From Sphyrna mokarran (lineage: Eukaryota), in contig JAGIQG010000004.1 of assembly GCA_024679065.1 (NCBI GenBank), positions 63,116,001 through 63,180,000 of the forward strand: a DNA stretch of 64,000 nucleotides, written 5' to 3'. Under the pieces are notes generated by a model that saw only the letters and a list, made by a program, of their open reading frames with translations, had not been told where the DNA came from and did no database searches. How positions within the stretch are numbered: position 1 is the first letter of the stretch; each line of letters begins with the position of its first letter. A program made the translations under genes and the position numbers. Below, piece after piece: positions 13,137 to 63,139 of the stretch.

Positions 13137-13191
13137 ATGTTGGCTAGTGTGACAATTCCGTGCATTACTGTTCTCGGAATCATTTTTACAG
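13137..13191 (+). CDS. Gene A exon 1: signal peptide of VJ-C1-TM-ITIM IgSF receptor (MLASVTIPCITVLGIIFT/G)
   Basis: ATG at 13137, hydrophobic leader, phase-1 donor G|GTATCT, 170-nt intron to V exon; paralogous to gene B leader (VLGII shared, same GTATCT donor). Confidence 0.85.
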
Positions 13192-13361: not shown

Positions 13362-13682
13362 GTCCCGGTGGAACTTCAGTAAGAGTCACTCAGCTCCCTG
13401 AGAGAATAAACGCAAACATCGGTACAAACGTTTCCTTCCATTGTTCGCTTCCTTTCTTTCAAGACGGCCCACGTGTGAATGTAAACTGGTGGAAAAATGG
13501 TGATAATCAATATCTAACGTCCGGACAAAATGATAGAATAATAACTGGATTCAAGACTAAATTCAGCGGCTTCCTTCGGATAATTAATGTGAATGTGCAG
13601 GACACAGGAGTATACTATTGCATTGTCACGCATCAAGGCAAAACAGCTGGAAATGGAACTGGATCTAATTTAACAGTATGGG
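13362..13682 (+). CDS. Gene A exon 2: V-set Ig domain with germline-fused J-like G strand
   Basis: Acceptor ttttccccatag; 321 nt open: (G)PGGTSVRVTQLPERINANIGTNVSFHCSLPFFQDGPRVNVNWWKNGD...FLRIINVNVQDTGVYYCIVTHQGKTAGNGTGSNLTVW. B-strand Cys, C-strand Trp, DTGVYYC, GxGSxLxV; donor G|GTAAGT, phase 1/1. Confidence 0.95.
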
Positions 13683-15156: not shown

Positions 15157-15468
15157 TTCCACCAACCCCATTGAAAATTAACCCTCAGCAGCTTGAAACG
15201 GATCCAGCTGCACCGTTGACTGTTCTGTGCACCACGTCTCCTTTTTGCCCGAAGAATATTAGTTTCACTTGGTATAAGGATGGCATTATAACTAAAATAG
15301 GAATCAATACCATCATTAAACCCAGCACCAATGGACTCTATGAAGCTTCCAGCCAGTTGCAAGAGGCGCAGCCTTCCCGGTCCGGAACTGTTTATACTTG
15401 CCTGGTCTTTCACAGTGCGCTCCAAATTCCAGCCATAACCACTCACATTGTCAACTATCCAAACACAG
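15157..15468 (+). CDS. Gene A exon 3: C1-set Ig domain
   Basis: Acceptor ttctttattgttctag; 312 nt: VPPTPLKINPQ...LTVLCTTSPFCPKNISFTWYKDG...NGLYEASSQL...VYTCLVFHSALQIP...PNT. C1 signatures CxxxxF(Y/C)P, W, YxCxVxH; donor G|GTAAGG. Confidence 0.95.
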
Positions 15469-19581: not shown

Positions 19582-19698
19582 AGATTACAGGAGATCAGAA
19601 CACCAAAGTTTTATTGATTTCTGCATTGGTAGGAGGCGGATTCATTCTCCTGACATTAGGTCTCATTGTGAAGCATTGTGTCACGAAGAAAAATAATG
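19582..19698 (+). CDS. Gene A exon 4: stalk + uncharged transmembrane segment
   Basis: Acceptor tttgctttgtttcag; EITGDQNTKVLLISALVGGGFILLTLGLIVKHCVTKKNN; donor G|GTAAGA, phase 1/1; similar length and 3' end to gene B TM exon. Confidence 0.88.
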
Positions 19699-23628: not shown

Positions 23629-23672
23629 GTATGCAGAAATTTGGTGAAAGATGTCATTATTCGGAACAGCAG
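23629..23672 (+). CDS. Gene A exon 5 (predicted): short cytoplasmic exon GMQKFGERCHYSEQQ
   Basis: Acceptor ttcctag, strong donor CAG|GTATGT; 44 nt converts phase 1 to phase 0, which is required to join the TM exon to the phase-0 ITIM exon. Confidence 0.6.
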
Positions 23673-29534: not shown

Positions 29535-29636
29535 TTCATTCAGGAAGCTGTCGAAATGTTGCCACCTTATTCTGCACCAGATACGACCAAATCCCGAAAA
29601 ACTCCAAGACATCAAGAACAGACACGGTGCATTCAG
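29535..29636 (+). CDS. Gene A exon 6 (predicted, symmetric phase 0/0): FIQEAVEMLPPYSAPDTTKSRKTPRHQEQTRCIQ
   Basis: Acceptor ttgtctttcag (alternative in-frame acceptor gives start 29544), donor CAG|GTAAGA; 102 nt open; resembles the ITIM module of the terminal exon. Confidence 0.55.
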
Positions 29637-29809
29637 GTAAGACGGAGCAAATACGCGGAATGCGTAATTAACACGTGGTCTATGGGCAAATACGTTTAAT
29701 ACTGCTTTACTACTTCTGTCTGCGTTAGCACTGATTCTGCGACATACGCGCTATTATGTCAATTAAAACTCCGTTTGGCTTCAGAGTCACAAGATTGTAG
29801 GATATAGCC

Positions 29810-30019: not shown

Positions 30020-30857
30020 AGGATATAGCCCACTCAGAAGACTTGGGAGTAAAGAATAATTTGGCACTCTTGTGCATTACTGAGAGAATTCTGCATTATC
30101 TGAACTACCGTATTTCAAAGGAGACGTTAAACTGAGATTCTAATTACCTAAATTTGCAGCAGATTAGGCCTATTCTCCCTTCAGTTTAGAAGAATGAGAT
30201 GGGGATCTAACTGAAGTGTACACGTTGCTAAAGAAGATCGATAAGATCGAAGTGGAGAGGATACTTCCTCTTGTACGGCAATCTAGAACAAGACGTCATA
30301 CTTTGAAGATAATGGGTAGCAGATTTAAAACAGAGACGAGGAGTCTGTGAAATTCACCTCTCGAGATTTTAATTGGATGTTGGGACATTTACTAAATTAA
30401 AGGAAGAAGTGGACAGGTTTTTAATTCGTAATGGTTTGAAGGGTCATGGTGAACAGGCAGGAAAGTAAATTTTGAGGCTGAGATGAGATTAGCCTTGACC
30501 ATACCAAAGGCCTGAATTACATATCCCTATTCTTAGTTCTTATCATTCTTATGTATGATTCATGTGATTCAATGGCATTATTTCGAAGGGGGGATTTTAT
30601 CCTCTGTGGCTTAGTCAATAGTTTTGTCTCCTATAACTAAAACAAATTATTAAGAATATATTGCTATTTCTAGGATCTTGCTCTGAGCAGATTGGCTGCT
30701 GTGTTTCTTACTTAACAACAGTGGCTAACCGTACCATAACAAGTGTTTGAATGACAGCAAAACACGTCTCGGAGTCGGGAATTTTTTTTTTCGATTCTAA
30801 TGAACTACAATAAAGTAAAATTGAAACTAATTATATTCCCAATCATTGATTTCACAG

Positions 30858-31025
30858 AACAAACAAAGACTACCCGATAATAAGCTGACGTACGCTGCTC
30901 TAGATATAATAGGATCAAAGAAAACTTCAAAGCCAAATCATAAGGATAAGAGCACGGAATATGCTCAGCTAAAGATGGAGAAACAAATAGCAGGAGTTGT
31001 CTACACCGAACGGAAAGCCACCTGA
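30858..31025 (+). CDS. Gene A terminal exon: inhibitory tail with ITIM (LTYAAL) and ITSM-like motif (TEYAQL)
   Basis: Acceptor ttgatttcacag; NKQRLPDNKLTYAALDIIGSKKTSKPNHKDKSTEYAQLKMEKQIAGVVYTERKAT*, stop TGA 31023-31025. Not in the ORF track. Motif pair resembles SIRPa/Siglec tails. Confidence 0.85.
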   Translation, partial: NKQRLPDNKLTYAALDIIGSKKTSKPNHKDKSTEYAQLKMEKQIAGVVYTERKAT

Positions 31026-45134: not shown

Positions 45135-48100
45135 AAAGAACAAAGAACAAAACAGCACGGGAAATAGGCCCTTCGGCCCAATGAGCCCACGCCGCCACCC
45201 TGATGTTCCCACCTCTACCCGCGATCCCTGTCCATGTTTATAGACCAATGGATTAAAAACAAAATTTGAGACAATTTAGGGAGAATTTGTTTTGCCAATT
45301 AATCTAAGAGCACATCTTTGGGATGTAGGAGGAAACCAGAGTGCCCGGAGAAAACCCACACAAGCACGGGGAGAATGTGCAAACTCTCACAGACACAGAC
45401 CTAAATCCATGTATCTGCACAGCGCAGCGATAGTCACTGAGCTGTCGTGTTGACCATCAAATGGTCCAGGTCAAGCGTACACTAATGATGTGAAGCAGTA
45501 GGATACTCTCGAAAAAGATTCAAGAGAAGTCCTCTCACGACCCATCGCATGTATGCCCCTCGTTAGACAACAAGGTGGACCAAAGCACCTGTAGGATAAG
45601 AACAAGTACATCAATATCATCATCTATTTACACACTTCCCAGGGACTCCCAAGGATCATGATCCCTATTTTAAATCAGTTTTCTATACCCCTCCATTCCC
45701 ATTCTGTTCATGTGCTCATCTAAGTATTTCTTAAATAACTCCAGAGTACCTGCCTCCACCACTTTACTTGGTAGCGCATTCCATACCCCCACCACCCTCT
45801 GTGTGAAAAAACTCCCTCTAGCATCCAAATTATACCTTACCCCTCACCCTAAGCCTGTGACCCCTCGTGCTATTCGAGTCCATCCTAGGAAAAAGCTTAA
45901 CCCTGTTTACTCTATCTATACCCCTCATAATCTTGTACACCTCTATTAGATCTCCTCCCAGTCTACATGTTTCTAAGGAAAACAGCCCCAATTTGCCTAA
46001 CCTCTCCTCATAACTCAGACCTTCCATCCCAGGCAGCATCCTGATAAACCTCCTCTGCACTGTCTCCAGAGTCTCCACTTCCCCCCGGTAGTAGGGCGAC
46101 CAGAACTGGACGCAGTACTCCAAATGAGTCTAACCAATGTTTTATACAAGTGCAACATTAAAGGCCAGCTCTTGAACTCTATACCCCTTCCTATAAAGGC
46201 TAGCATGCCATATGCTTTCTTCACAACCTTCTCCACCTCCTCTGTCACCTTCAGAGACTTGTGCACCTACAGCCCCAGATACCACTGCGTTCCTATACTC
46301 TTAATACGTCTACCCTTCATTATATACCTCCCCCCTACATTCTTTCTCCCGAAAAGCATCACCTTGCATTTATCAGGATTGAATTCCATCTGCCATCTAT
46401 CTGCCCAAGCTACCAGCCTATGTCCTGATGTATCACCTGACAATGTTCCTCACTATCCGCAAGTCCAGCCATCTTTGCATCGTCTGCAAACTTGCTGATC
46501 ACTCCACTTACTCCCTCTTCCAAGTCATTTGTATGTATTACAAATAGAAGAGGTCCCAGTACCAAGCCCTGCGGCACACCTCTAGTGACCGAACACCAGC
46601 GAGAGAAACACCCTTCCACGATTACTCTCTGTCTCCTATTACCAAGCCAGTTACTTATCCATCTAGCTACATGTCCTTGTATCCCATTAGCCTTGACCTT
46701 CTCGACTAACATCCCATGAGGGACTTTGTCAAATGCCTTACTAAAATCCATGTATATGACATCAATGGCTGGCCCTTCATCCACCGTTTTCATCACCTCC
46801 TCAAAAAATTCTACCAGATTTGTAAGACACGACCTCCCCTTAACAAATCCATGCTGCGTATCCCGAATCAAATCACAACGTTCTAAGTGCCTATACATCC
46901 TATCTCTAAGAATCCCCTCCAACAGCTTCCCTACCACTGATGCCAAACTCACCGGCCTATAATTTCCAGAGTTATCCCTACTACCCTTTTTAAACAACGG
47001 TACAACATTAGCTATTCTCCAGTCCTTTGGGATCTCACCTGTGTCCAAGGAAGAAACAAAGATTTGCGTCAGAGGCCCAGCAATATCACCTCGCACCTCC
47101 CTAAGCTGCCTGGGATAAATGTCATCAGGCCCCGGAGATTTATCAGTTTTAATGCTACCTAGAAGCTCTAACACTTCCTCCCTCGGTATGGATATTTCCC
47201 TCAACTGGTCCACAGCTCCCTCAGAGACAGGAGCTGTCAACAAGCCCTTCTTCTTTGTGAATAACGACGCAAAGTATTCATTCAGGATCTCCACCATTCC
47301 CTCGGGCTCTAAGCACAGTTCCCCTCCTCTGTCCCGAAGAGGTCTGATTTTTCCTCTAACCACCCTTCTATTCCTAAAAAACCTTTGGATTTTTCTTAAT
47401 CCTATCCGCCAAAATAATTTCATGCCCCCTTTTTGCCCTTCTAACTCCCATTTGAGCTCCCTCCTACTGTCTCTATATTCCTTCAATGCTGTCTCGGTTC
47501 CCAGCTGCTTTGACCTATCATACGCCTCTCTTTTCTTCCTAACCAAGTCCTCAATATCTCTAGTAATCCACGGCTTTCCAGTCCTACCTTTCCCATCTTT
47601 CCTCTTGGCTGGCACGTATTTATCTTGCAATATTTTCACTATTTTCTTGAAAGAGTCCCACATGCCTAGCATGGACTTAACCTCGAACAACCATTCCCTA
47701 TCAGTTTCCCTAAGTTCCTGCCTAATCCGACTGTAGTTAGCCTTCCCCCAATTCAGTACCCTGCCCCTAAGGCAACAAGCATCCTTTTCCATCTGTATCC
47801 TAAAATAGACAGAATTGTGGTCACTGTTAGCCACATGTTCCCCTACTGCAACATCAACCACCTGCCCTGGCTCATTACTCAGAATTAAATCCAATATAGC
47901 CCCTTCTCTAGTCGGGCTAGCCACATACTGCTCCAACGATCCTTCCAGTACACATTTTACAAATTCCTGCCCATCCAAACCTACTTTCCAATCCACCCTA
48001 GGGAGATTAAAATCTCCCACTATAACGACTCTGTTCTTTCTGCTCCTATCCAAAATGTCTTTACATATGCCTTCTTCAACTACCCGTGGGCTGTTGGGTG

Positions 48101-50680
48101 GCCTATAATATACTCCTAGCATAGTAATCGCCCCCTTTCTACATAGAACATAGAACATAGAACATTACAGCACAGAACAGGTCCTTTGGCCTTCGATGTT
48201 GCGCCGACCAATATAAAAAGCAATGCCCCTCCAAACTAAACCATTCCCTTCTCTTCCATATACTTATCAAATAACCCCTTAAACGCCACCAAACTTGGCG
48301 CATCTACAACCGCTGCAGGCAGGGCATTCCACTCCCGAACCACCCTTTGGGTAAAGAACCTGCCTCTGATATCCGTCCTATAACTATCACCCCTCAATTT
48401 AAAGCTGTGTCCCCTCGTGCTAGCTTTTTCCATCCTAGGAAAAAGGCTATCACTGTCCACCCTATCTAAACCTCTAATCATCTATATGTTTCGATCAGGT
48501 CCCTCTTAGCCTCCTCCTTTCTAACGAAAACAACCTCAAATCCCTCAGCCTCTCCTCATAAGACCTGCCCTCCATACCAGGCAACATCCTGGGTAAACCT
48601 CCTCTGTACCCTCTCCAATGCCTCCACATCTTTCTTATAATGTGGGGACCAGAACTGCACACAATACTCCAAGTGCGGCCGCACTAGAGTTTTGTACAGT
48701 TGCAACATGACGTTGCGGCTCCGAAATTCAATCCCTCTACCAATAAAAGCCAAGACTCCATATGCCTTCCTAACAACCTTCTCGACCTGACTGCCTACTT
48801 TCAGGGATCTATGCACATACACACCAAGATCCCTCTGTTCATCTAGACTACTAAGAATCCTACCATTTGCCCTTTCTATTCCTCAACTCCACCCACAGCG
48901 ACTCCACTCCTACCTCCCCTGTATTGTCCTCCGTCTGCACCACCGTGATGCTCTCCTTAACTAACAACGCCAGTCCTCCACCTCTTCTGGACTCTCCTCT
49001 GTCACGCCTGAAACACTTATACCCAGGAATGTTCAGTTGCACTGCTCCCTTCCTCTAACCATGTCTCCGTCACCGCAACCACATCCAAGTTCCTTGCAAA
49101 CATTAAGGCCCTAAGTTCATCCGTTTTTCCCATTCCGCTCCTCTCATTGAAACAGATACACTCCAGACCTCCAAGACCACTTGGAACCTCCTTCTGCCCG
49201 GTGCATCTCTTCTCATCCAAGCTTACTCTTTCTCCCATCTCGCTCTCTACCGAGCTATCGGTCTCAGCCCCTCCCCCCCTCCATATTAGTTTAAATCCTG
49301 CCGAAATACTCCAGCTAACCTCCCAGCTAAGATATTCATGCCCTTCCCATTCAAGTGTTCCCCGTACCTTCTACACAGCTGCCCTTCTTTCACAAAGACT
49401 TCCCAGTTATCCACAAATACGAAACCCTCTGCCCTACACCAGTCCTTCAGCCACTCATTCAGCTGTAGGATCTCATTTCTCCTGGTTCTGCTATTACCCG
49501 CACCTGGAAGCAGACCTGAGATCGCCACCTTCAAGGCCCTGCTCTTCAGCCTACCCCCCAACTCGCTGAACTGCTTCGTATATCCTCCCTGCACTTCCTT
49601 CCTACATCCTTCTCTCATACGTGAATAATCATATCCGCCTGGGCCCCTCACCCTTCAAAATGCCCTCTACCCGTCCGACGCATCTTGCACCACTGCTCCA
49701 GGGAGGCAGACTACCATCCTGGAGTCCCACCTTGGAGCACAGAAGCGTCTATCTATTCCTTTAACCCTCCCATCCCCCACCACTATCTTCCTTTTAGCCC
49801 CTTTCCTCCCTTTTGAGGTATTCTGGTCCTCGTGCCTTGCCTTTTTTAACCTTCCGCCCTCGATATTTTGGGGGGGCTGCACTGGGACGTCTTTGGACTG
49901 TCTCCCCTCTCCTTTTCCCTTCCTGACAGTAATCCACCTCTAAGGGTCAGGGTCAGGGTCTCCCCCCACCCCCACCCATCCCACCTCCCCCCCCACCCCC
50001 CACCTTAGGCTCCGGGTCCACCACCTTACTCTGCCTTTCTTCCGTGATTGCCTCGTTCTCCCTGACTAAAAATGCATCTTCCAATCGGCGCTCTAGTTGC
50101 TAGAGCCCTCAGATGCTGCAGCTCCAAACACGACGCATACATGGACTTTTGGGAGAGGTCTTGCCTCGAGGAACTCCCACATATGGCACCATACACAGGT
50201 GAGGCATCTTCCCTTAATCCCTGCCATTGTCATGAACACCTCTGGAGGTGTGAATTCCAATGGAAAAACCAGTAGCACACTGCGCCTAAGCCTGCTCTCC
50301 CCTGAGCCCTGCGAGCCAAAGCCCTTATATCTCTCACTCTGCTTCCCTACTCACTCCCCTGCCCGCTCCAACGCTGCCCGCTGTCTACTGCCACTTTCTT
50401 TTTATAATCCCCAGTTTCCTTCCCAGCTAGCCCCAGGACTAACTACAGCAGCAAAAAGCATTCAAAAAGAAAGAGAGAAAAAAACAATTTGAAAAATTCA
50501 CACACAGCCACCAGCACTTCCAAACACTCTGTCCCAGAGAACAATGAGGTGGGTTGCTGATTTATACTCCCCACTCCCTTCCCAGCTAGCCCCAGGACTA
50601 ACTACAGCAGCATAAAGCGCTCAAAAAGAGAGAGAAAAAAAAAAGCAAATTGAAAAATTCACACTCAGCCACCAGCAGGG
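45135..50680 (-). mobile_element. Near full-length CR1 LINE (5' UTR, ORF1 with Cys motif and SGNH-esterase, ORF2 EN-RT, long 3' UTR); inactive
   Basis: ORF1 pieces 50093..50278 (CVWCHMWE), 49667..49882 (IVVGD..VKGIDRRFC...VCLPGA), 49286..49651; ORF2 pieces 49017..49238, 48860..49042, 46410..48158 (582 aa), 46015..46266, 45830..46123. Confidence 0.93.
48142..48869 (-). mobile_element. Young CR1 3' fragment nested in the ORF2 of the full-length CR1
   Basis: TSD CCCTTTCTA at 48133-48141 and 48870-48878; host frame ELRNRKG|AITMLGVYYRPPNS is split here. Confidence 0.92.
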
Positions 50681-52423: not shown

Positions 52424-52469
52424 ATGTTTGCGTGTCAGTGCATATGGGTCCTAGGAATTATTTACGAAG
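52424..52469 (+). CDS. Gene B exon 1: signal peptide (MFACQCIWVLGIIYE/V)
   Basis: ATG 52424, phase-1 donor G|GTATCT, homologous to gene A leader; short intron to V exon. Confidence 0.82.
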
Positions 52470-52685
52470 GTATCTTCCACAACAAATTGTTTTCTCATTT
52501 AGAATCTTTTAATCTTGCTTTCTTTTTCATCGTGTGTCCGCCTATATTCCGCCTACATATCTTTCTATGTATCTATCTATCTTTTTATCTATCTATCTAG
52601 CTATGCATCTGTTTCTCTCCCTATCTGTTTACGTTTAACGTACAATTTATTCATATGTAACAACTACATTTTAAATGTTTTATAG

Positions 52686-52997
52686 TTGCTTCCACATGGG
52701 TGTCGCAATTGCCTGAAAGCACCATTTTGATGGCGGGTTCAGATATTACGTTCCACTGTACAGCGAATTCTGTCCAGATTCATTCAGATGTGGATGTTTA
52801 TTGGTGGAAACTTGGCGATGAAACATTTTTACAACCGAATTCTGATGACAGAAAGCGATTCTTTCCTTTTAAAAGCGGAGCGACTTCCTTCCAGATCCTG
52901 AATGTCCGTGTCTCCGACTCCGGATTCTATTACTGCGGAGTGCGAGACGCAGGTAGCAGGATCCTCAATGGAACTGGATCCAGACTTGTTGTGCACG
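52686..52997 (+). CDS. Gene B exon 2: V-set domain with germline-fused J-like strand
   Basis: Acceptor tgttttatag; VASTWVSQLPESTILMAGSDITFHCTANS...VYWWKLGD...FQILNVRVSDSGFYYCGVRDAGSRILNGTGSRLVVH; donor G|GTAAGA; 312 nt. Confidence 0.95.
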
Positions 52998-54128
52998 GTA
53001 AGAGACATGGAACATCTGCTGTTGTACGATGCTATACAGAAGATCAGAGGCAGTTTTGATTAAACAGGGAGATTAACAGGGCAAATTTGTGGGGTTATAA
53101 GGATACGTCGGTGGAGGGATTTTTCTTGGTGCAGACTCGATGGGCCGAATGGCCTCCTTCAGCCCTGTAGGATTCTATAATTCTGTAATCAGTGAATTTA
53201 TTTCTAATGTTAATTTGTGGAAGTCGGGCCTATCACAATATCACAATCCGCATCCATTGTTTGTTATGCATCTATATTCTACATGTTTACCTGTTTTAGT
53301 GCAGGGTTCCAATGCATTATTTAGATGAGGGATTTTACCTAAAAATGCCTATGTGGCAAAAAGAACCTTGATTGACTGACGATATGGATAGACAACAAAA
53401 CATTTTTGTTACGAGGGTTTGTTTTTCACAATTTTATTTCAGAATCCTCAGGTTTGATACTCCTGTGGCACCACCTTCAAAAATTATAAAGCAAAATTAC
53501 TCAAACTGATCGGTATATGAAACCGATCAGTTCGCTACCGATTGAAATTAATTAGAGGGCAAGATTATAAAAAAATGCTGATACCAATGGCGCCTTTCTC
53601 ATCCGGGGTGTTTGACACATTTAGGTTAAACCTTTAAGTAACATGAATTCGAGTAAATTTCAGGTAACTGGAAACACAGCCCCATTCTGATCATGTTTGG
53701 AAATTAGATTTGATACTCACTTGGAATATGAGTGTGGAATCCAATCTGTGGATTTAACAGCGCCACTTCGCGTGGTCAGAACAGATCTATAGTTAATTTT
53801 GCTTCAAGTTAGGATTGAAACAAAAACCTGCATTGTTCGCTCCCCCTTCCTCCCCCCCCCCCCACCCGCCCTCTCCCCCCGCCCCCAAACGCCTTCGCAG
53901 CTCCACGGTTCATCCCTTCAAACGTTTGTTGTTGCCAAATTTGCAGCAATTTCCAATTTTTCACCTTTAAAGTATTGAACCAATTATGATTCAGCTTATC
54001 ATGAGACCAATGTATCACTTGGCCGTAATAATATTTCCCCTTGCTACAGAAATAGAAATCTTAACTCAATCAATTTCAAATAATATTGTTCACATGAGTT
54101 TTGTTTATTTACACGGTGCATAATCATA

Positions 54129-56550
54129 GAACATAGAACATAGAACATTACAGCACAGAACAGGCCCTTCGGCCTTCGATGTTGTGCCGACCAAAATAAA
54201 AAGCAATGCCCCTCCAAACTAAACCATTCCCTTCTCTTCCATATACTTATCAATTAACCTCTTAAACGCCACCAAACTTGGCGCATCTACAACAGCTGCA
54301 GGCAGGGCATTCCACTCCCTAATCACTCTTTGAGTAAAGAACCTACCTCTGATATCCGTCCTATAACTCATACCCCTTAATTTAAAGCTGTGTCCCTCGT
54401 GCTAGCTTTCTCCATCCTAGGAAAAAGGCTATCGCTGTCCACCCTATCTAAACCTCTAATCATCTTATATGCTTCAATAAGATCCCCTCTTAGCCGCCTC
54501 CTTTCTAACAAAAACAACCTCAAATCCTTCAACCTCTCTTCATAGGACCTGCCCTCCATACCAGGCAACATCCTGGTAAACCTCCTCTGTACCCTCTCCA
54601 ATGCCTCCACATCTTTCTTATAATGTGGGGACCAGAACTGCACACAATACTCCAAGTGCGGCCGCACTAGAGTTTTGTACAGTTGCAACATGATGCTGCG
54701 GCTCCTAAATTCAATCCCCCTACCAATAAAAGCTAAGACTCCATATGCCTTCTTAACAACTTTATCCACTTGACTGCCTACTTTCAGGGATCTATTGACA
54801 CATACACCAAGATCCTTCTGTTCCTCAACACTATTAAGAGCCCTACCATTAGCCCTATACTCTACACATTTATTGTTCCTGCCAAAGTGCATTACCTCAC
54901 ACTTTTCCACATTAAACTCCATTTGCCACCTCTCGGCCCAGCTCTGCAACTTGTCCAAGTCACTCTGTAAACTATAACACCCCTCTTCACTATCTACCAC
55001 TCCACCGACTTTAGTGTCATCTGCAAATTTACTGATCCATCCCTCAATACCCTCATCCAGATCATTTATAAAAATTACAAACAGCAGGGGCCCCAAAACA
55101 GACCCCTGAGGTACACCACTTGTCACCGAACTCCACGATGAATATCTCCCATCAACCACCACCCTCTGTCTTCTATCTGCCAGCCAATTCCTAATCCAAT
55201 TAGCTAAATCACCCTCTATTCCACACATCTGCATTTTCTGTAGAAGTCTTCCATGGGCCACCTTATCAAACGCCTTACTAAAGTCCATATATACTACATC
55301 AACCGCCTTACCCCCATCCACCTCTTTGGTCACTTTCTCAAAAAACTCAATAGGTTAGTAAGGCATGACCTACCCTTCACGAAACCATGCTGACTATCCC
55401 CAATCAATTCATTTCTCTCTAAATAACTATAAATCCTATCCCTAATAATTCTCTCCAATACTTTGCCCACAACAGAAGTAAGACTCACTGGCCTATAATT
55501 CCCTGGAAGGTCTCTCTTCCCCTTCTTAAACAATGGGACCACATTCGCTATCCTCCAGTCCTCCGGAACCACACCCATAACCAACGAGGACCTGAAGATC
55601 AGAGCCAGAGGCTCTGCAATCTCCTCGCTTGCCTCCCAGAGAATCCTAGGGTAAATCCCGTCCGGCCCAGGGGACTTATCCAACTTCAAACCCTCGAGAA
55701 TTTCTAGCACATCCTCCCTATCTACTACAATACTTCCCAATTTGCAACCCTGTACCTCAGTGTTCTCCATAGCTACATTTCCAGCACTCTGCGTGAATAC
55801 CGAAGAGAAATATTTATTCAGTGCCTCACCAATCTCTTCAGGCTCCACGCACAACTTCCCACTGCTGTCTATGACTGGCCCTAATCTTGCCCTAACCAAT
55901 CTTCTATTCTTAACATATCGAAAGAAAGCTTTAGGATTCTCCTTAATCCTATCAGCCAACATCTTCTCGTGTCCCCTCTTAGCTCTCCTCAATTCACTTT
56001 TTACCTCCTTCCTGGCTAATCTATAGCTATCCATTGCACTAACTGAGCCTTCAAGCCTCATCCTGACATAAGCCTCCTTTTTCTTCTTAACCAGCAAATC
56101 AACTTTTTTCGTACACCAAGGCTCTCTTACTCGACCATTTCCTCCCTGCCTGACAGGGACATACTTATCAAGGACTCGCAGCAGCTGCTCCTTGAATAAG
56201 CACCACATTCCAGATGTTCCCAGTCCCTGTAGTTTCCTAGTCCAATCTATGCACCCTAATTCTCTCCTGATGGCCTCATAATTACCCTTCCCCCAGCTAT
56301 AACTACAGCCCCCAGCTTCATGCCTATCCCTGTCCATCACTAAGGTGAACGTAACCGAATTGTGGTCACTATCACCAAAATGTTCACTAACTTCCAAGCC
56401 TAACACCTGGTCTGGCTCATTGCCCAGCACCAAATCCAATGTAGCCTCACCTCTAGTTGGCCTATCTACATACTGGGTCAAAAAACCTTCCTGCACACTC
56501 TGTACAAAAACTGACCCCTCTAACGAGCTAGAGCTATAGCTATTCCAATC
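54129..56550 (-). mobile_element. Young CR1 (2.4 kb, 5'-truncated), antisense in gene B intron 2
   Basis: ORFs 55330..56688 and 54377..55333 separated by one frameshift; TSD AATCATA at 54122-54128 and 56551-56557. Confidence 0.93.
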
Positions 56551-56932
56551 AATCATAATGATGAAATACTTCTGAATAGATATGAAAAAGTACTCCTTTG
56601 TTTTTCTATTTGAAATTTGGTATTTTTCCCTTTGCCCAGATGAGTGCAAAATACGAAGCTTCCACAGCATGCTTCTTTCTACAGGCAATATTTATTTGCA
56701 AGACCAAAACCAACCTGAATGTCTTGCGCATTATTTTCTGCTGGTATTATAACATTGTTCATCAGTGTTCGCATATTAATTTAGAATTAGTAATGAGAAT
56801 TTAAGATTGTCGTGATTTAGTTTGGTTCCTGTGACTAAAAACCATTTGATCATAGCCAGGAACACTGGATCTTAATGGAAAATAAGGTACACAAATAGAA
56901 ACAATCAATGTTTTCATTTCGCTGTTCCACAG

Positions 56933-57241
56933 CTTCCCCAGAACCCATAAGACTGATCCCCAAGGTTTTCCGTACCAACTCATCTACTCGAACACTTGTA
57001 TGTGAAACGGCTGAGTTCTACCCAGAGTCTCTCACCTTCATTTGGTATAGAAACGACAGCAACATTGTGACTGGAATCAGCACCATTCAAACGGTGAACG
57101 CAGAGGGAGAGTATAAAGCTTCCAGTAGTTTGGAAATGGCAGATCCAGCCCAGAGCGGTATTGTGTATACCTGTGTGGTGTCTCACCTCACACTGCAGTA
57201 TCCAATCATGGCTATTTACTTGGACTCCATTTCTAATTCAG
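56933..57241 (+). CDS. Gene B exon 3: C1-set Ig domain
   Basis: Acceptor gctgttccacag; ASPEPIRLIPK...TLVCETAEFYPESLTFIWYRND...EGEYKASSSL...VYTCVVSHLTLQYP...SNS; donor G|GTAAGA; 309 nt. Confidence 0.95.
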
Positions 57242-57888
57242 GTAAGATGCCAATCTTTGCACAGATATGGTCGGTAACCGTTTGCTATGTATCCACATTT
57301 ATGTCGTTCAATCCTCTGAACTTAATTACGTTCTTTTAAAGACTGGTTCGTCTTAGAGGTTTGTAAAGCGAATGAAAGTGGGAAAGAGAGCAATCTATTA
57401 CAGATATTATTCATTACCAAATTTCACTCAGATTCAATGAGTTGCCCTTTAACGCAAAACAAAGAAAGACATGGAACGTCTTTTCACTCATGACTTTAGA
57501 ATTTCCTCGTTATGACAAGCTGCTGATACCCTTGTATGGATATTCCGCTTTATAAGACACTCACCTGCACTCATGTGCCTATAATTATCGATATGTTGTG
57601 CCTACCTGTAAAATTCACCTCAATGGAGATGCAAACGATAAATGTGTATTGATTCAATACGAACAGGAAATGTAGTCACTTGATTGTGAAGTCAGAATCA
57701 ATAATAGTACTAGGTCATACGAGTTAGAAGTCTTCTGCTCAGTTACTGAAAAATATTTGCAATATATTTTTTTCCATAGACTGACTGCGTATCACTTCCT
57801 TCGACGGGAAAATTATATTTGGCTATTCATATTAATAGCAATAATTATATTACGTTCGCTGTTTTCACTATCATTATCATTTTCACAG

Positions 57889-58002
57889 ACCCTGGCCACA
57901 CTTCCATTTATCTACAGATTTCTATATATGCAGAAGTTGTATTGATATTTCTAGCCCTGAGCGCTTTCATTATGAAGAGCTACCAACACCGCAAGTGTAA
58001 TG
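57889..58002 (+). CDS. Gene B exon 4: stalk + transmembrane segment containing Glu; downstream exons unresolved
   Basis: Acceptor tcattttcacag; DPGHTSIYLQISIYAEVVLIFLALSAFIMKSYQHRKCN; donor G|GTAAGG. Confidence 0.85.
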
Positions 58003-60771: not shown

Positions 60772-63139
60772 GTCAGGGTTTCATGACTCAGTATGTAGAG
60801 TCAGTATGTAGATAGGCCAACAAGAGGTGAGGCTATATTGGATTTGGTAGTGGGTAATGAACCAGACCAGGTGTTAGACTTGGAGGTGGGTGTGCACTTT
60901 GGTGATAGTGACCACAATTCGGTTACGTTTACCTTAGCAATGGAAAGGGATCAGCACGTACCGATTAACAGTAGTTATAGCTGGGGGAAAGGTAATTATG
61001 AGGCTATTAGGAGAGATTTAGGATGCATAGGGTGGAGCTGGAAATTGCAGGGGCTGGGGACATCTGAAATATGGAGAATATTTAAGGAACAGCTTCTGCA
61101 TGTCCTTAATGAATATGTACCTGCCAGGCAGGGAGGAAGTGGTCGAGTGAGGGAACCATGGTGTACTAAGGAAGTTGAATCTCTGGTGAAGAGGAAGAAG
61201 GAGGCTTATATAATGATGAGACATGAAGGCTCAGTTAGGGCAATGGAGAGCTATAAATCAGCCAGGAAGGAGCTAAAGAGGGAGTTGAGAAGAGCTAGAA
61301 GAGGACACGGGAAGACTTTGGCGGATAGGATTAAGGAGAATCCTAAAGCTTTTTACAAGTATATAAATAATAAAAGATTGGTTAGGGCAAGATGAGGGCC
61401 AGTCAGAGATAGCAGTGGGAAATTGTGCGTGGAGCCTGAGGAGATAGGAGAGACACTGAATGAGTATTTTTCGTCAGTATTCACGCAGGAGAAAGACAAT
61501 GTTGTCGGGGAGAATACTGTGATACCAGGTTGTAGACTGGGCAGGATTGAGGTTCATAAGGAGGAGGTGTTAGCGAATCTTGAGGGTATGAAAATTGATA
61601 AGTTCCCTGGGCCAGATGGGATTTACCCTAGGATTCTCTGGGAGGCTAGAGAGGAGATTGCAGAGCCTTGGCTTTGATCTTCATGTCGTCGTTGGCTACA
61701 GGTATAGTGCCGGAAGACTGGAGGATGGCAAATGTTGTCCCTTTGTTCAAAAAAGGGAGTAGGGACCATCCTGGAAATTATAGACCGGTGAGCCTGACTT
61801 CTGTTGTGGGCAAGGTCTTGGAAAGAATTATAAGGGATAGGATTGATAAGCATCTAGAGAGGAATAAATTGATTAGGGATAGTCAGCACGGTTTTGTGAA
61901 GGGTAGGTCGTGCCTCACAAACCTTATTGAGTTTTTTGAGGAGGTGACCAAAGAGGTAGAGAAGGGTAAGGCAGTTGATGTAGTGTATATGGATTTTAGC
62001 AAAGCGTTTGATAAGGTTCCCCATGGTAGGCTACTGCAGAAAGTGCAGATGCATGGGATTGAAGGTGATTTAGCAGTTTGGATTAGGAATTGGCGAGCTG
62101 ATAGAAGACAGAGGGTGGTGGGTGATGGGAAATATTCAACCTGGAGTGCAGTTACAAGTGGTGTACCTCAAGGATCTGTTTTAGGGCCACTTCTGTTTGT
62201 CATTTTTATAAATGACCTAGATGAGGGTGTAGAGGGTTGGATTAGTAAATTTGCTGACGATACCAAAGTGGGGGGAGTTGTAAACAGCGAGGATGGATGT
62301 TACAGTTTGCAGAGGGACATAGATAGGTTGCAGAGCTGGGCCGGGAGGTGGCAAATGGAATTCAATACAGATAAGTGTGAGGTGATTCACTTTGGTAGGA
62401 ATAACAGGCATATGAAATATAGGGCTAATGGAAGGACCCTTAATAGTGTTGTCGAGCAGAGGGATCTTGGGGTACAAGTAAATAGCTCTTTGAAAGTTGG
62501 CACCCAGGTTGATAAAGTTGTTAAGAAGGCGTACGGTGTGTTAGCTTTTATTGGTAGAGGGATTGAATATAGGAGCCGTGAGGTTATGTTACAACTGTAC
62601 AAAACTCTGGTGCGGCCGCACTTGGGAGTATTGCGTACAGTTCTGGTCGCCGCATTATAAGAAAGATGTGGAAGCATTGGAAAGGGTGCAGAGGAGGTTT
62701 ACCAGGATGTTGCCTGGTATGGTGGGAAGGCCTTATGAGGAAAGGCTGAGGACCTGAGGTTATTTTCATTAGAGAGAAGAAGGTTACGCGGTGACCTAAT
62801 TGAGGCATATAAGATGATCAAGGGATTGGATAGGGTGGATAGTGAGAACCTTTTTCCTCGGATGGTGATGACCAACAGGAGGGGACATAACTTTAAATTA
62901 AGAGGTGGTAGTTATAGGATGGATGTCAGAGGCAGGTTCTTTACACAGAGGGTGGTTATAGCGTGGAATGCTCTGCCTGCAGCAGTTGTGGGCTCGCCTA
63001 CTTTGGGGGCATTCAAATGTTCGGTGGATAGGCATATGGATGATATTGGAATAGGTTAGGTTAGAAGGTCCACTGGCCGGCGCAACATCGAGGGCCGAAG
63101 GGCCTGTACTGCGCTGTAATGTTCTATGTTCTATGTTCA
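60772..63139 (+). mobile_element. CR1 LINE (5'-truncated, few disruptions)
   Basis: ORFs 60838..61395, 61423..61677, 61668..62660 (FADD), 62814..63059; tgttctatgttctatgttc tail. Confidence 0.93.

Follow-up and report, generated by a model that had tools for sequence, protein, structure and literature searches.

The segment 30858..31025 (+ strand) of the 64-kb window, by which we mean the whole stretch of DNA analysed here, was confirmed by splice phase and homology as a genuine terminal coding exon, exon 7 of gene A. Gene A, as predicted from its sequence, is intact, and its seven exons specify a type I membrane receptor with a leader, a VJ domain, a C1 domain, an uncharged transmembrane (TM) segment and a tail of about 107 residues. 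Exon 7 encodes a complete tail module followed by the beginning of a third, and the receptor is likely inhibitory and would recruit SHP-1, SHP-2 or SHP-2L. By its sequence, gene A is a member of a V-C1 cluster of cartilaginous fishes.

The terminal exon and the gene A model

Exon 7 is opened in phase 0 by an AG acceptor at 30856-30857 and reads 55 codons without a stop until it is closed by a TGA at 31023-31025. The HMM of the tail module matched it with an E-value of 4.2e-19, the sole significant match in the window. Three tyrosine motifs are encoded, LTYAAL (30885-30902, Tyr326), TEYAQL (30954-30971, Tyr349) and VVYTER (30996-31013, Tyr363), and Tyr326 and Tyr349 of the 369-aa gene A model are 23 residues apart; an earlier note on this DNA had reported the three motifs and the distance of the first pair correctly. 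LTYAAL, located in frame behind the TM, fits the ITIM pattern (S/I/V/L)xYxx(I/V/L). The strict ITSM consensus is TxYxx(V/I) (PMC12151841), and TEYAQL, with Leu at +3, fails it, so that judging from its residues it is ITSM-like rather than a strict ITSM. Both motifs have Ala at +1 and Leu at +3, the second has Thr at -2, and Ile and Met are found at +5. The C-SH2 domain was reported to prefer Ile, whereas the second motif of gene A has Leu at +3.

The motif pair was compared with chance by searching the six frames of the 64-kb window, and 100 block shuffles, for an ITIM followed 20-26 residues on by TxYxx(I/L/V). One pair was observed against a mean of 0.46 in the shuffled sequences, and at least one pair occurred in 41 of the 100 block shuffles; the motif pair alone in 64 kb gives no significant excess over chance. 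Exon 7 is accepted as real because of its splice phase and its homology, and not because of the motif pair. With tblastn, it was found to be 83.9% identical to a Mustelus asterias RefSeq model (E 1.7e-25), and in models of Heterodontus, Heptranchias, Pristis and Callorhinchus this exon likewise follows a V-C1-TM that is an orthologue or paralogue. Identical residues numbered 46 of 54 in the smooth-hound (Mustelus asterias) and 39 of 54 in the horn shark (Heterodontus). The exon had been described as unannotated, which is correct for the ORF track alone, because the RefSeq models of relatives already include it.

The seven exons of gene A, all on the + strand, are separated by six GT-AG introns, and their phases join into one 369-aa frame with no stop and no net frameshift. 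Exon 1 (13137..13191) encodes the signal peptide, from the ATG to a phase-1 donor, and matched the N-termini of Heterodontus models at 64-68% (tblastn). Exon 2 (13362..13682; Pfam V-set E 1.4e-8) contains the V domain and a J-like G strand, unsplit in one non-rearranging exon which is 78% identical to the catshark protein XP_038663089.1. The C1-set domain is encoded by exon 3 (15157..15468; Pfam C1-set E 3.4e-9; 86% to the Mustelus model), and the stalk and uncharged TM helix by exon 4 (19582..19698; tblastn 71% to Mustelus, E 2.3e-13), which ends in phase 1. The best 19-residue hydrophobic window of the TM has a KD value of 2.43 and no charged residue, as the earlier note had claimed, and the stalk has no Cys, hence no hinge Cys. 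Every gene A exon was matched by family models in tblastn, with the Mustelus asterias model covering exons 3-7 at 71-87%. The same kind of search with family models found no second C1 between 15468 and 19582, in agreement with the claim that gene A has one C1 where SIRPa has two. In the C1 exon (15157-15468), the Tyr of the family F-Y-P motif is replaced by a Cys (Ser in the Mustelus model), and this odd Cys could make an interchain bond.

Exon 5 (23629..23672; 87% to the Mustelus model) is a 44-nt cytoplasmic exon leading from phase 1 to phase 0, with a counterpart segment in Heterodontus models; it has a weak pyrimidine tract and was missed by the automatic exon scan. It is indispensable for the ITIM frame because exon 4 leaves off in phase 1 whereas exon 7 begins in phase 0. 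Direct splicing of the TM exon to exon 7 was rejected as a path to the ITIM, the reading being out of frame with a stop after 7 residues, and the motifs are likewise missed when exon 6 is included without exon 5. The segment 28502-28611, considered as an alternative phase 1-to-0 exon, was dropped as no family protein matched it in tblastn. Exon 6 (29544..29636) is a decayed copy of the tail module, assigned by its homology to exon 7, which can be skipped without a change of frame and has an alternative in-frame acceptor at 29535. Read-through of the exon 6 donor (29636-29699) stays open for 20 further codons before a stop, and may give an alternative short end, as in models of Hemiscyllium. 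Among polyadenylation-type hexamers, ATTAAA (32472) and AATAAA (33458) lie closest. The segment 34001-34099 weakly resembled family V domains in tblastn (E 0.044), but its translation in one frame was unconvincing and it was not taken for an exon.

A paired receptor family with a repeated tail module

The search with the V exon returned 6 proteins among 156 candidates, all of them shark or skate RefSeq models, and the longer isoforms of these proteins include exon 7. Gene A is 63.8% identical to Heterodontus XP_067906080.1 across 369 aa, and it is nested in the family tree as the sister of a catshark model with a support of 100/97. Judging by its relatives, the DNA probably comes from a ground shark. 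The cluster modelled in RefSeq has the exon order, domains and tail of gene A, its nearest models being 64-86% identical; gene A has one intact tail module where many members have two or three. A family profile built from 18 members was used in a word-based search in which 7997 candidates were scored (E <= 1e-20). It matched 66 proteins, 64 with the name of a cartilaginous-fish species (14 genera, from chimaera to rays) and two with species names cut off and accessions adjoining those of Callorhinchus, but, because the search was word-based with 7997 candidates scored, this distribution is not proof of absence elsewhere. No family member was found in the homologue search among proteins of 712-2030 residues, and the V-domain HMMER scan was crowded by multi-Ig giants. 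Among the V-domain matches was P0081 (Vipera latastei), a three-Ig snake receptor with NKp30-like G strands and two tail Tyr motifs. Within a species, matches mostly share the same longest contig (12 in the horn shark and 9 in Heptranchias), which suggests that the family genes form one cluster per species. The RefSeq names of the family are automatic, mixed and inconsistent, loosely SIRP-alpha-like, and a search limited to open-access papers, subscription journals being the likelier venue, found none devoted to this cluster.

Together with 8 longer isoforms or cluster members, the 66 matches gave a set of 74 family models, whose rows are not independent. Sixty-two of the 74 have a TM and 39 have an ITIM/ITSM-like motif; a Yxx(L/I/V) pair 20-26 residues apart was found in 28 of the 62 TM-bearing models (74 examined). 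Variant domain layouts were seen in P0028, P0115, P0121; P0019, P0171 and P0176, some without C1 (V-TM-tail) and others V-C1-C1, V-C1-V-C1 or V-V-C1, and may reflect isoforms, domain shuffling or fused gene models.

The tail of the family is built from an exon-encoded unit of about 37 residues with the spacing Y-23-Y-14, repeated in tandem so that a member has one to three copies. Tyr-to-Tyr gaps in the 74 models (n=131) measured 22-23 residues in 47 cases and 13-14 in 26, and the commonest gap was 23 (35/131). The gene A tail consists of one intact module, one decayed copy and a remnant third Tyr. The decayed copy, exon 6, aligns to exon 7 in DNA, acceptor included, better than any of 1000 shuffles, and in protein only 1 of 2000 shuffles was as good; it has lost the second Tyr, and Pro occupies +3 of the first. 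Compared with orthologues, the end of exon 6 (29610-29636) resembles a short compensated frameshift, two bases in and two out, which as judged by eye surrounds the site of the module's second Tyr. Tyr363 falls 14 residues after Tyr349, the inter-module spacing, and its counterpart in Callorhinchus P0161 lies in a third module that is complete there; the residue at +3 of the third Tyr is P, A, Q or R in the family. Because of this register and of the residues at +3, the third Tyr seen in the earlier reading is present but is taken as the remnant of a third module's first Tyr, and not as an ITIM.

Conservation was followed in the 36 of the 74 models that aligned to exon 7 with a score of at least 60, a selection by alignment score that favours Tyr matches. 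Tyr326 was kept in 36/36 and Tyr349 in 31/34, with L/V/I at +3 of the second motif in 31/34, Thr at -2 in 27/34 and Ala at +1 in 29/34; Val or Ile occupies this +3 position in 14/34 relatives. The spacer columns vary, the best residue being present in 9-11/36 at three columns, as opposed to the conserved Tyr and the residues at -2, +1 and +3. Conservation in orthologues, which had been proposed as a check on the motifs, was thus observed; the ITIM and ITSM-like pair claimed from gene A alone stands as a conserved pair, although the Leu at +3 of TEYAQL departs from the strict ITSM.

An automatic rule assigned an Arg to 13 of 62 family TM segments; it was wrong for three rows, in which the Arg is at the outer edge, and overlooked one. 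Tail motifs were absent in 9/13 Arg rows compared to 14/49 others (Fisher p 0.010), and the median tail was 31 residues with a TM Arg versus 90 without, where neither the counts nor the p-value are independent because isoforms and near-copies are among the rows. In P0051, a member with Arg, an ITIM is present as well. A V+C1 tree was built from 38 rows, 10 with Arg (P0091 and P0142 being unnamed proteins added by eye) and 28 without Arg but with motifs, after 5 of 43 rows had been dropped by the domain-finding pattern. The Arg label changed 9 times on this tree, each change forced by well-supported branches, and shuffled labels gave a mean of 9.0. As the label is scattered like a shuffled one, ends of activating and inhibitory type have been joined repeatedly to near-identical ectodomains. 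The family thus presents, as far as its sequences tell, the pattern of paired receptors, with close ectodomains and opposite TM/tail types in one cluster.

A tandem paralogue, gene B (52424..58002, + strand), has its leader at 52424-52469, V at 52686-52997, C1 at 56933-57241 and TM at 57889-58002, and belongs in the tree to a different family branch from gene A. No cytoplasmic exon of gene B and no tail module downstream of it were found in the window. Its TM exon (57889-58002) carries a Glu within the hydrophobic stretch, where the closest relative, Heptranchias P0191, has Gly. Apart from genes A and B, the window contains only retroelements. Decayed LINE-type reverse-transcriptase sequence, which we take to be CR1-like, occurs on both strands (e.g. 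46410-48164, 54377-56691, 60799-62660) and makes up much of the window, also within the introns of both genes.

The ectodomain and its possible relatives

The ectodomain of gene A had been called TCR-shaped, which is right for the domain order and not for the pairing surface, since the Phe of FGxG is replaced by the Asn of a glycosylation sequon and the hinge Cys is absent. At this position, aligned to Ig lambda, Phe or Trp was found in 0/61 family J motifs and an Asn-Gly-Thr/Ser sequon in 44/61; SIRPa has Ser. A glycan placed there should hinder V-V pairing. The features of a TCR or Ig chain are lacking in gene A, with V and J not split, no Phe/Trp, no stalk Cys and an uncharged TM. An AF2 model of the V exon reached a pLDDT of 90.5, and its structural matches in VIA-align were VNAR (Z 14.3, rmsd 2.0, 98 aligned), CD79b (Z 13.2), NKp30 (Z 12.9, rmsd 2.4, 101 aligned) and PD-1 (Z 12.8), with no clear winner. 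In Foldseek, SIRPa d1 was ranked 25 (E 4.5e-8), tied with TCR, VNAR, CD79b and NKp30; SIRP was not among the 50 matches listed in the wide VIA-align search, which was not counted against SIRP. The top PDB match of the C1 exon, summed over three domains, was UrIg2, a molecule described in PMC12227049.

Known receptors share parts of this design. PD-1, already identified in sharks (PMC12151841, PMC11599192), has an ITIM followed by a TEY-type motif, with a spacing of 25 versus 23 in gene A, but it is a single-copy CD28-family gene with one V domain and no C1. The NITR of teleosts and the MDIR of skate, treated in PMC3031540 and PMC6795676, form multigene activating/inhibitory clusters (PMC3031540); NITR are V + C2/I-type and MDIR are CD300/TREM-like, neither of them being V-C1, unlike the gene A family.

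The cluster might be the SIRP locus of cartilaginous fishes, with gene A as a one-C1 SIRPa orthologue which would bind CD47 and give a 'don't eat me' signal on phagocytes, a reading that we consider possible but doubtful. The likeness to SIRPa extends to the single-exon VJ, the C1, the uncharged TM, the tandem ITIM and ITSM-like pairs, the activating siblings and the short isoforms; mouse SIRPa has eight exons and two C1 (PMC12324903) against the seven exons and one C1 of gene A. When the family profile was run against the PDB, SIRPa also ranked first among non-antibody entries, with 107 bits over two stretches, and the ESM Atlas features of a full-length orthologue were nearest to SIRPa clusters (0.97, 0.96). 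Taken per stretch, however, the V-C1 of SIRPa scored 62.4 bits, below the V-C of Ig lambda (69.4) and kappa (64.1), with UrIg2 at 55.0, and a C1-weighted profile placed B7-H6 (about 60 bits) over SIRPa (53). SIRP was not among the best 60 matches of the V profile, nor among the ESM matches listed for the ectodomain alone; by these comparisons Ig light chains and B7-H6 appear to be at least as near to the gene A ectodomain as SIRP is. The layouts also differ, SIRP being V-C1-C1 where gene A has one C1 exon, and each tail module having its own exon in the gene A family. The activating members of the cluster use Arg, whereas the TM residue of SIRP-beta is Lys. SIRP-beta pairs with DAP12 (PMC12975943), and a 2026 survey places SIRP among the families first seen in Tetrapoda (PMC13262535). 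The single C1 makes SIRP membership less likely, though still conceivable because SIRP isoforms with fewer domains exist. The best reading of these analogies is that the gene A family would work like SIRPa, with SIRP orthology unproven. In the supplement of PMC10751288, reedfish chromosome 12 has nine 'type substrate 1-like' genes together with beta-2-microglobulin and MHC-paralogon-12 genes; these may be bony-fish counterparts or share the same automatic name only.

It is unlikely that gene A is a PRARP/NKp30-type non-rearranging relative of antigen receptors on lymphocytes, with a second motif that would perhaps be a true switch (SAP/EAT-2). PRARP is a V-C1 molecule with an ITIM/ITSM tail, and NKp30 has a characteristic G strand and a TM Arg. 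The single-exon VJ-C1 layout, the NKp30-like G strand and TM Arg of the activating members and the Z-score of the V model with NKp30 agree with such an origin, but this Z-score is tied with those of VNAR, CD79b, TCR and PD-1. NKp30, PRARP and UrIg are cited as MHC-linked in PMC10751288, the first two as VJ genes that lie within the MHC, and the catshark MHC list given there does not contain the cluster. The gene-ID prefix of catshark LOC119970986 and its contig-mates has 0 occurrences in the supplement listing catshark chromosome 13, the chimaera gene-ID prefix of the cluster is absent from the tables of that paper, and the sawfish MHC list of the same supplement has no 'type substrate 1' or SIRP-like name. 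Because the prefix is absent from the chromosome list, the cluster is placed off the catshark MHC chromosome, indirectly, through relatives of gene A. The set of joined-VJ molecules named in PMC11599192 comprises CD79, NITR, SIRP, CD8, NKp30 and PRARP. PRARP, NKp30 (NCR3) and UrIg/UrIg2 are like gene A in their unsplit VJ exon, and UrIg and PRARP in their C1. They are linked to the MHC or to antigen-receptor complexes, whereas the cluster of gene A is off the catshark MHC chromosome; UrIg is moreover secreted and multi-C, and NKp30 is activating and without C1, gene A differing in both respects.

Inhibitory signalling and its meaning for the family

The horn shark isoform XP_067905933.1 has 266 residues in common with XP_067905932.1, followed by 7 residues from its terminal exon in a shifted frame. 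This end corresponds to the TM exon joined directly to the terminal exon, with 8/8 codons compatible compared to 0/38,771 control positions, and XP_067906081.1 diverges before the terminal exon. The RefSeq models of relatives include both the ITIM form and tail-less forms, so that the exon read in another frame, which the earlier note had named as the case against its own claim, does exist, beside the in-frame isoform. Since some isoforms of relatives stop ahead of the exon or use it in the shifted frame, the main product of gene A may be a form other than the ITIM one. We nevertheless regard it as improbable that the exon, though real, is seldom read in the ITIM frame, the main products being tail-less decoys or the gene decaying: the two horn shark isoforms and the decayed exon 6 point that way, but gene A is open across its seven exons, free of stops and net frameshifts, and chimaera, sharks and rays all keep the ITIM frame, which indicates purifying selection on that frame. 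Even less credit is given to the two Yxx-Leu motifs being mainly AP-2 endocytosis or sorting signals. Yxx-hydrophobic is the established AP-2 sorting consensus, and both motifs fit it. Sorting needs neither the fixed spacing of 22-23 residues (47/131 gaps), nor a conserved Thr at -2 with a conserved Ala at +1, nor the paired-receptor pattern, all of which fit binding to tandem SH2 domains.

An inhibitory receptor is the best reading of the VJ-C1 ectodomain, the uncharged TM and the conserved motif pair, and this much of the earlier interpretation is retained; it had missed the repeat module and the paired family. Binding of a ligand by the V domain of gene A would bring the tail near a Src-family kinase, and Tyr326 and Tyr349 would be phosphorylated, phosphotyrosine being required for SHP binding. 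The phosphorylated pair, 23 residues apart, could then be bound by SHP-2, SHP-2L or SHP-1 through their tandem SH2 domains, which would dampen activation signals, including those of sister receptors with a TM Arg. In other receptor families a TM Arg couples to an ITAM adaptor of the FcR-gamma/CD3-zeta type, and that of the sister receptors would be expected to couple to an ITAM adaptor likewise. How strongly the receptor inhibits may depend on how many tail-module exons are intact and also on skipping of the 44-nt exon, which would give a tail-less form. The ectodomain is probably a monomer or homodimer rather than a TCR-like heterodimer, and its ligand would by default be guessed to be a surface protein of self.

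The observation of the single exon is modest, because Ig-type ITIM/ITSM receptors are a familiar design and the models of relatives already include the exon. We rate the design and the exon models as known, and the one-C1, exon-modular, paired VJ-C1 family of cartilaginous fishes as large and little studied. The family matters more than the exon, as a paired VJ-C1 cluster kept from chimaeras to sharks and rays. To our knowledge, few inhibitory NK or myeloid receptors have been defined in sharks. The cluster offers reagents (V-Fc, tail chimeras) to ask what shark leukocytes see as self, and allows one to ask whether SIRP, placed in tetrapods by the 2026 survey (PMC13262535), is older. We tentatively suggest, and with less than even confidence, that cartilaginous fishes have in this cluster their main complex of paired innate receptors, and that it represents the deep branch of SIRP missing so far. 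From a VJ-C1 scaffold that does not rearrange, equally near Ig light chains and SIRP, inhibitory forms and Arg-coupled activating forms would then have diversified, and a tail exon that can be duplicated, together with exon skipping that shifts the frame, would set the strength of inhibition. If true, a self-recognition checkpoint of SIRP type would date back to the ancestor of jawed vertebrates, and the cluster would add a multigene candidate, not linked to the MHC, to the short list of relatives of antigen-receptor precursors.
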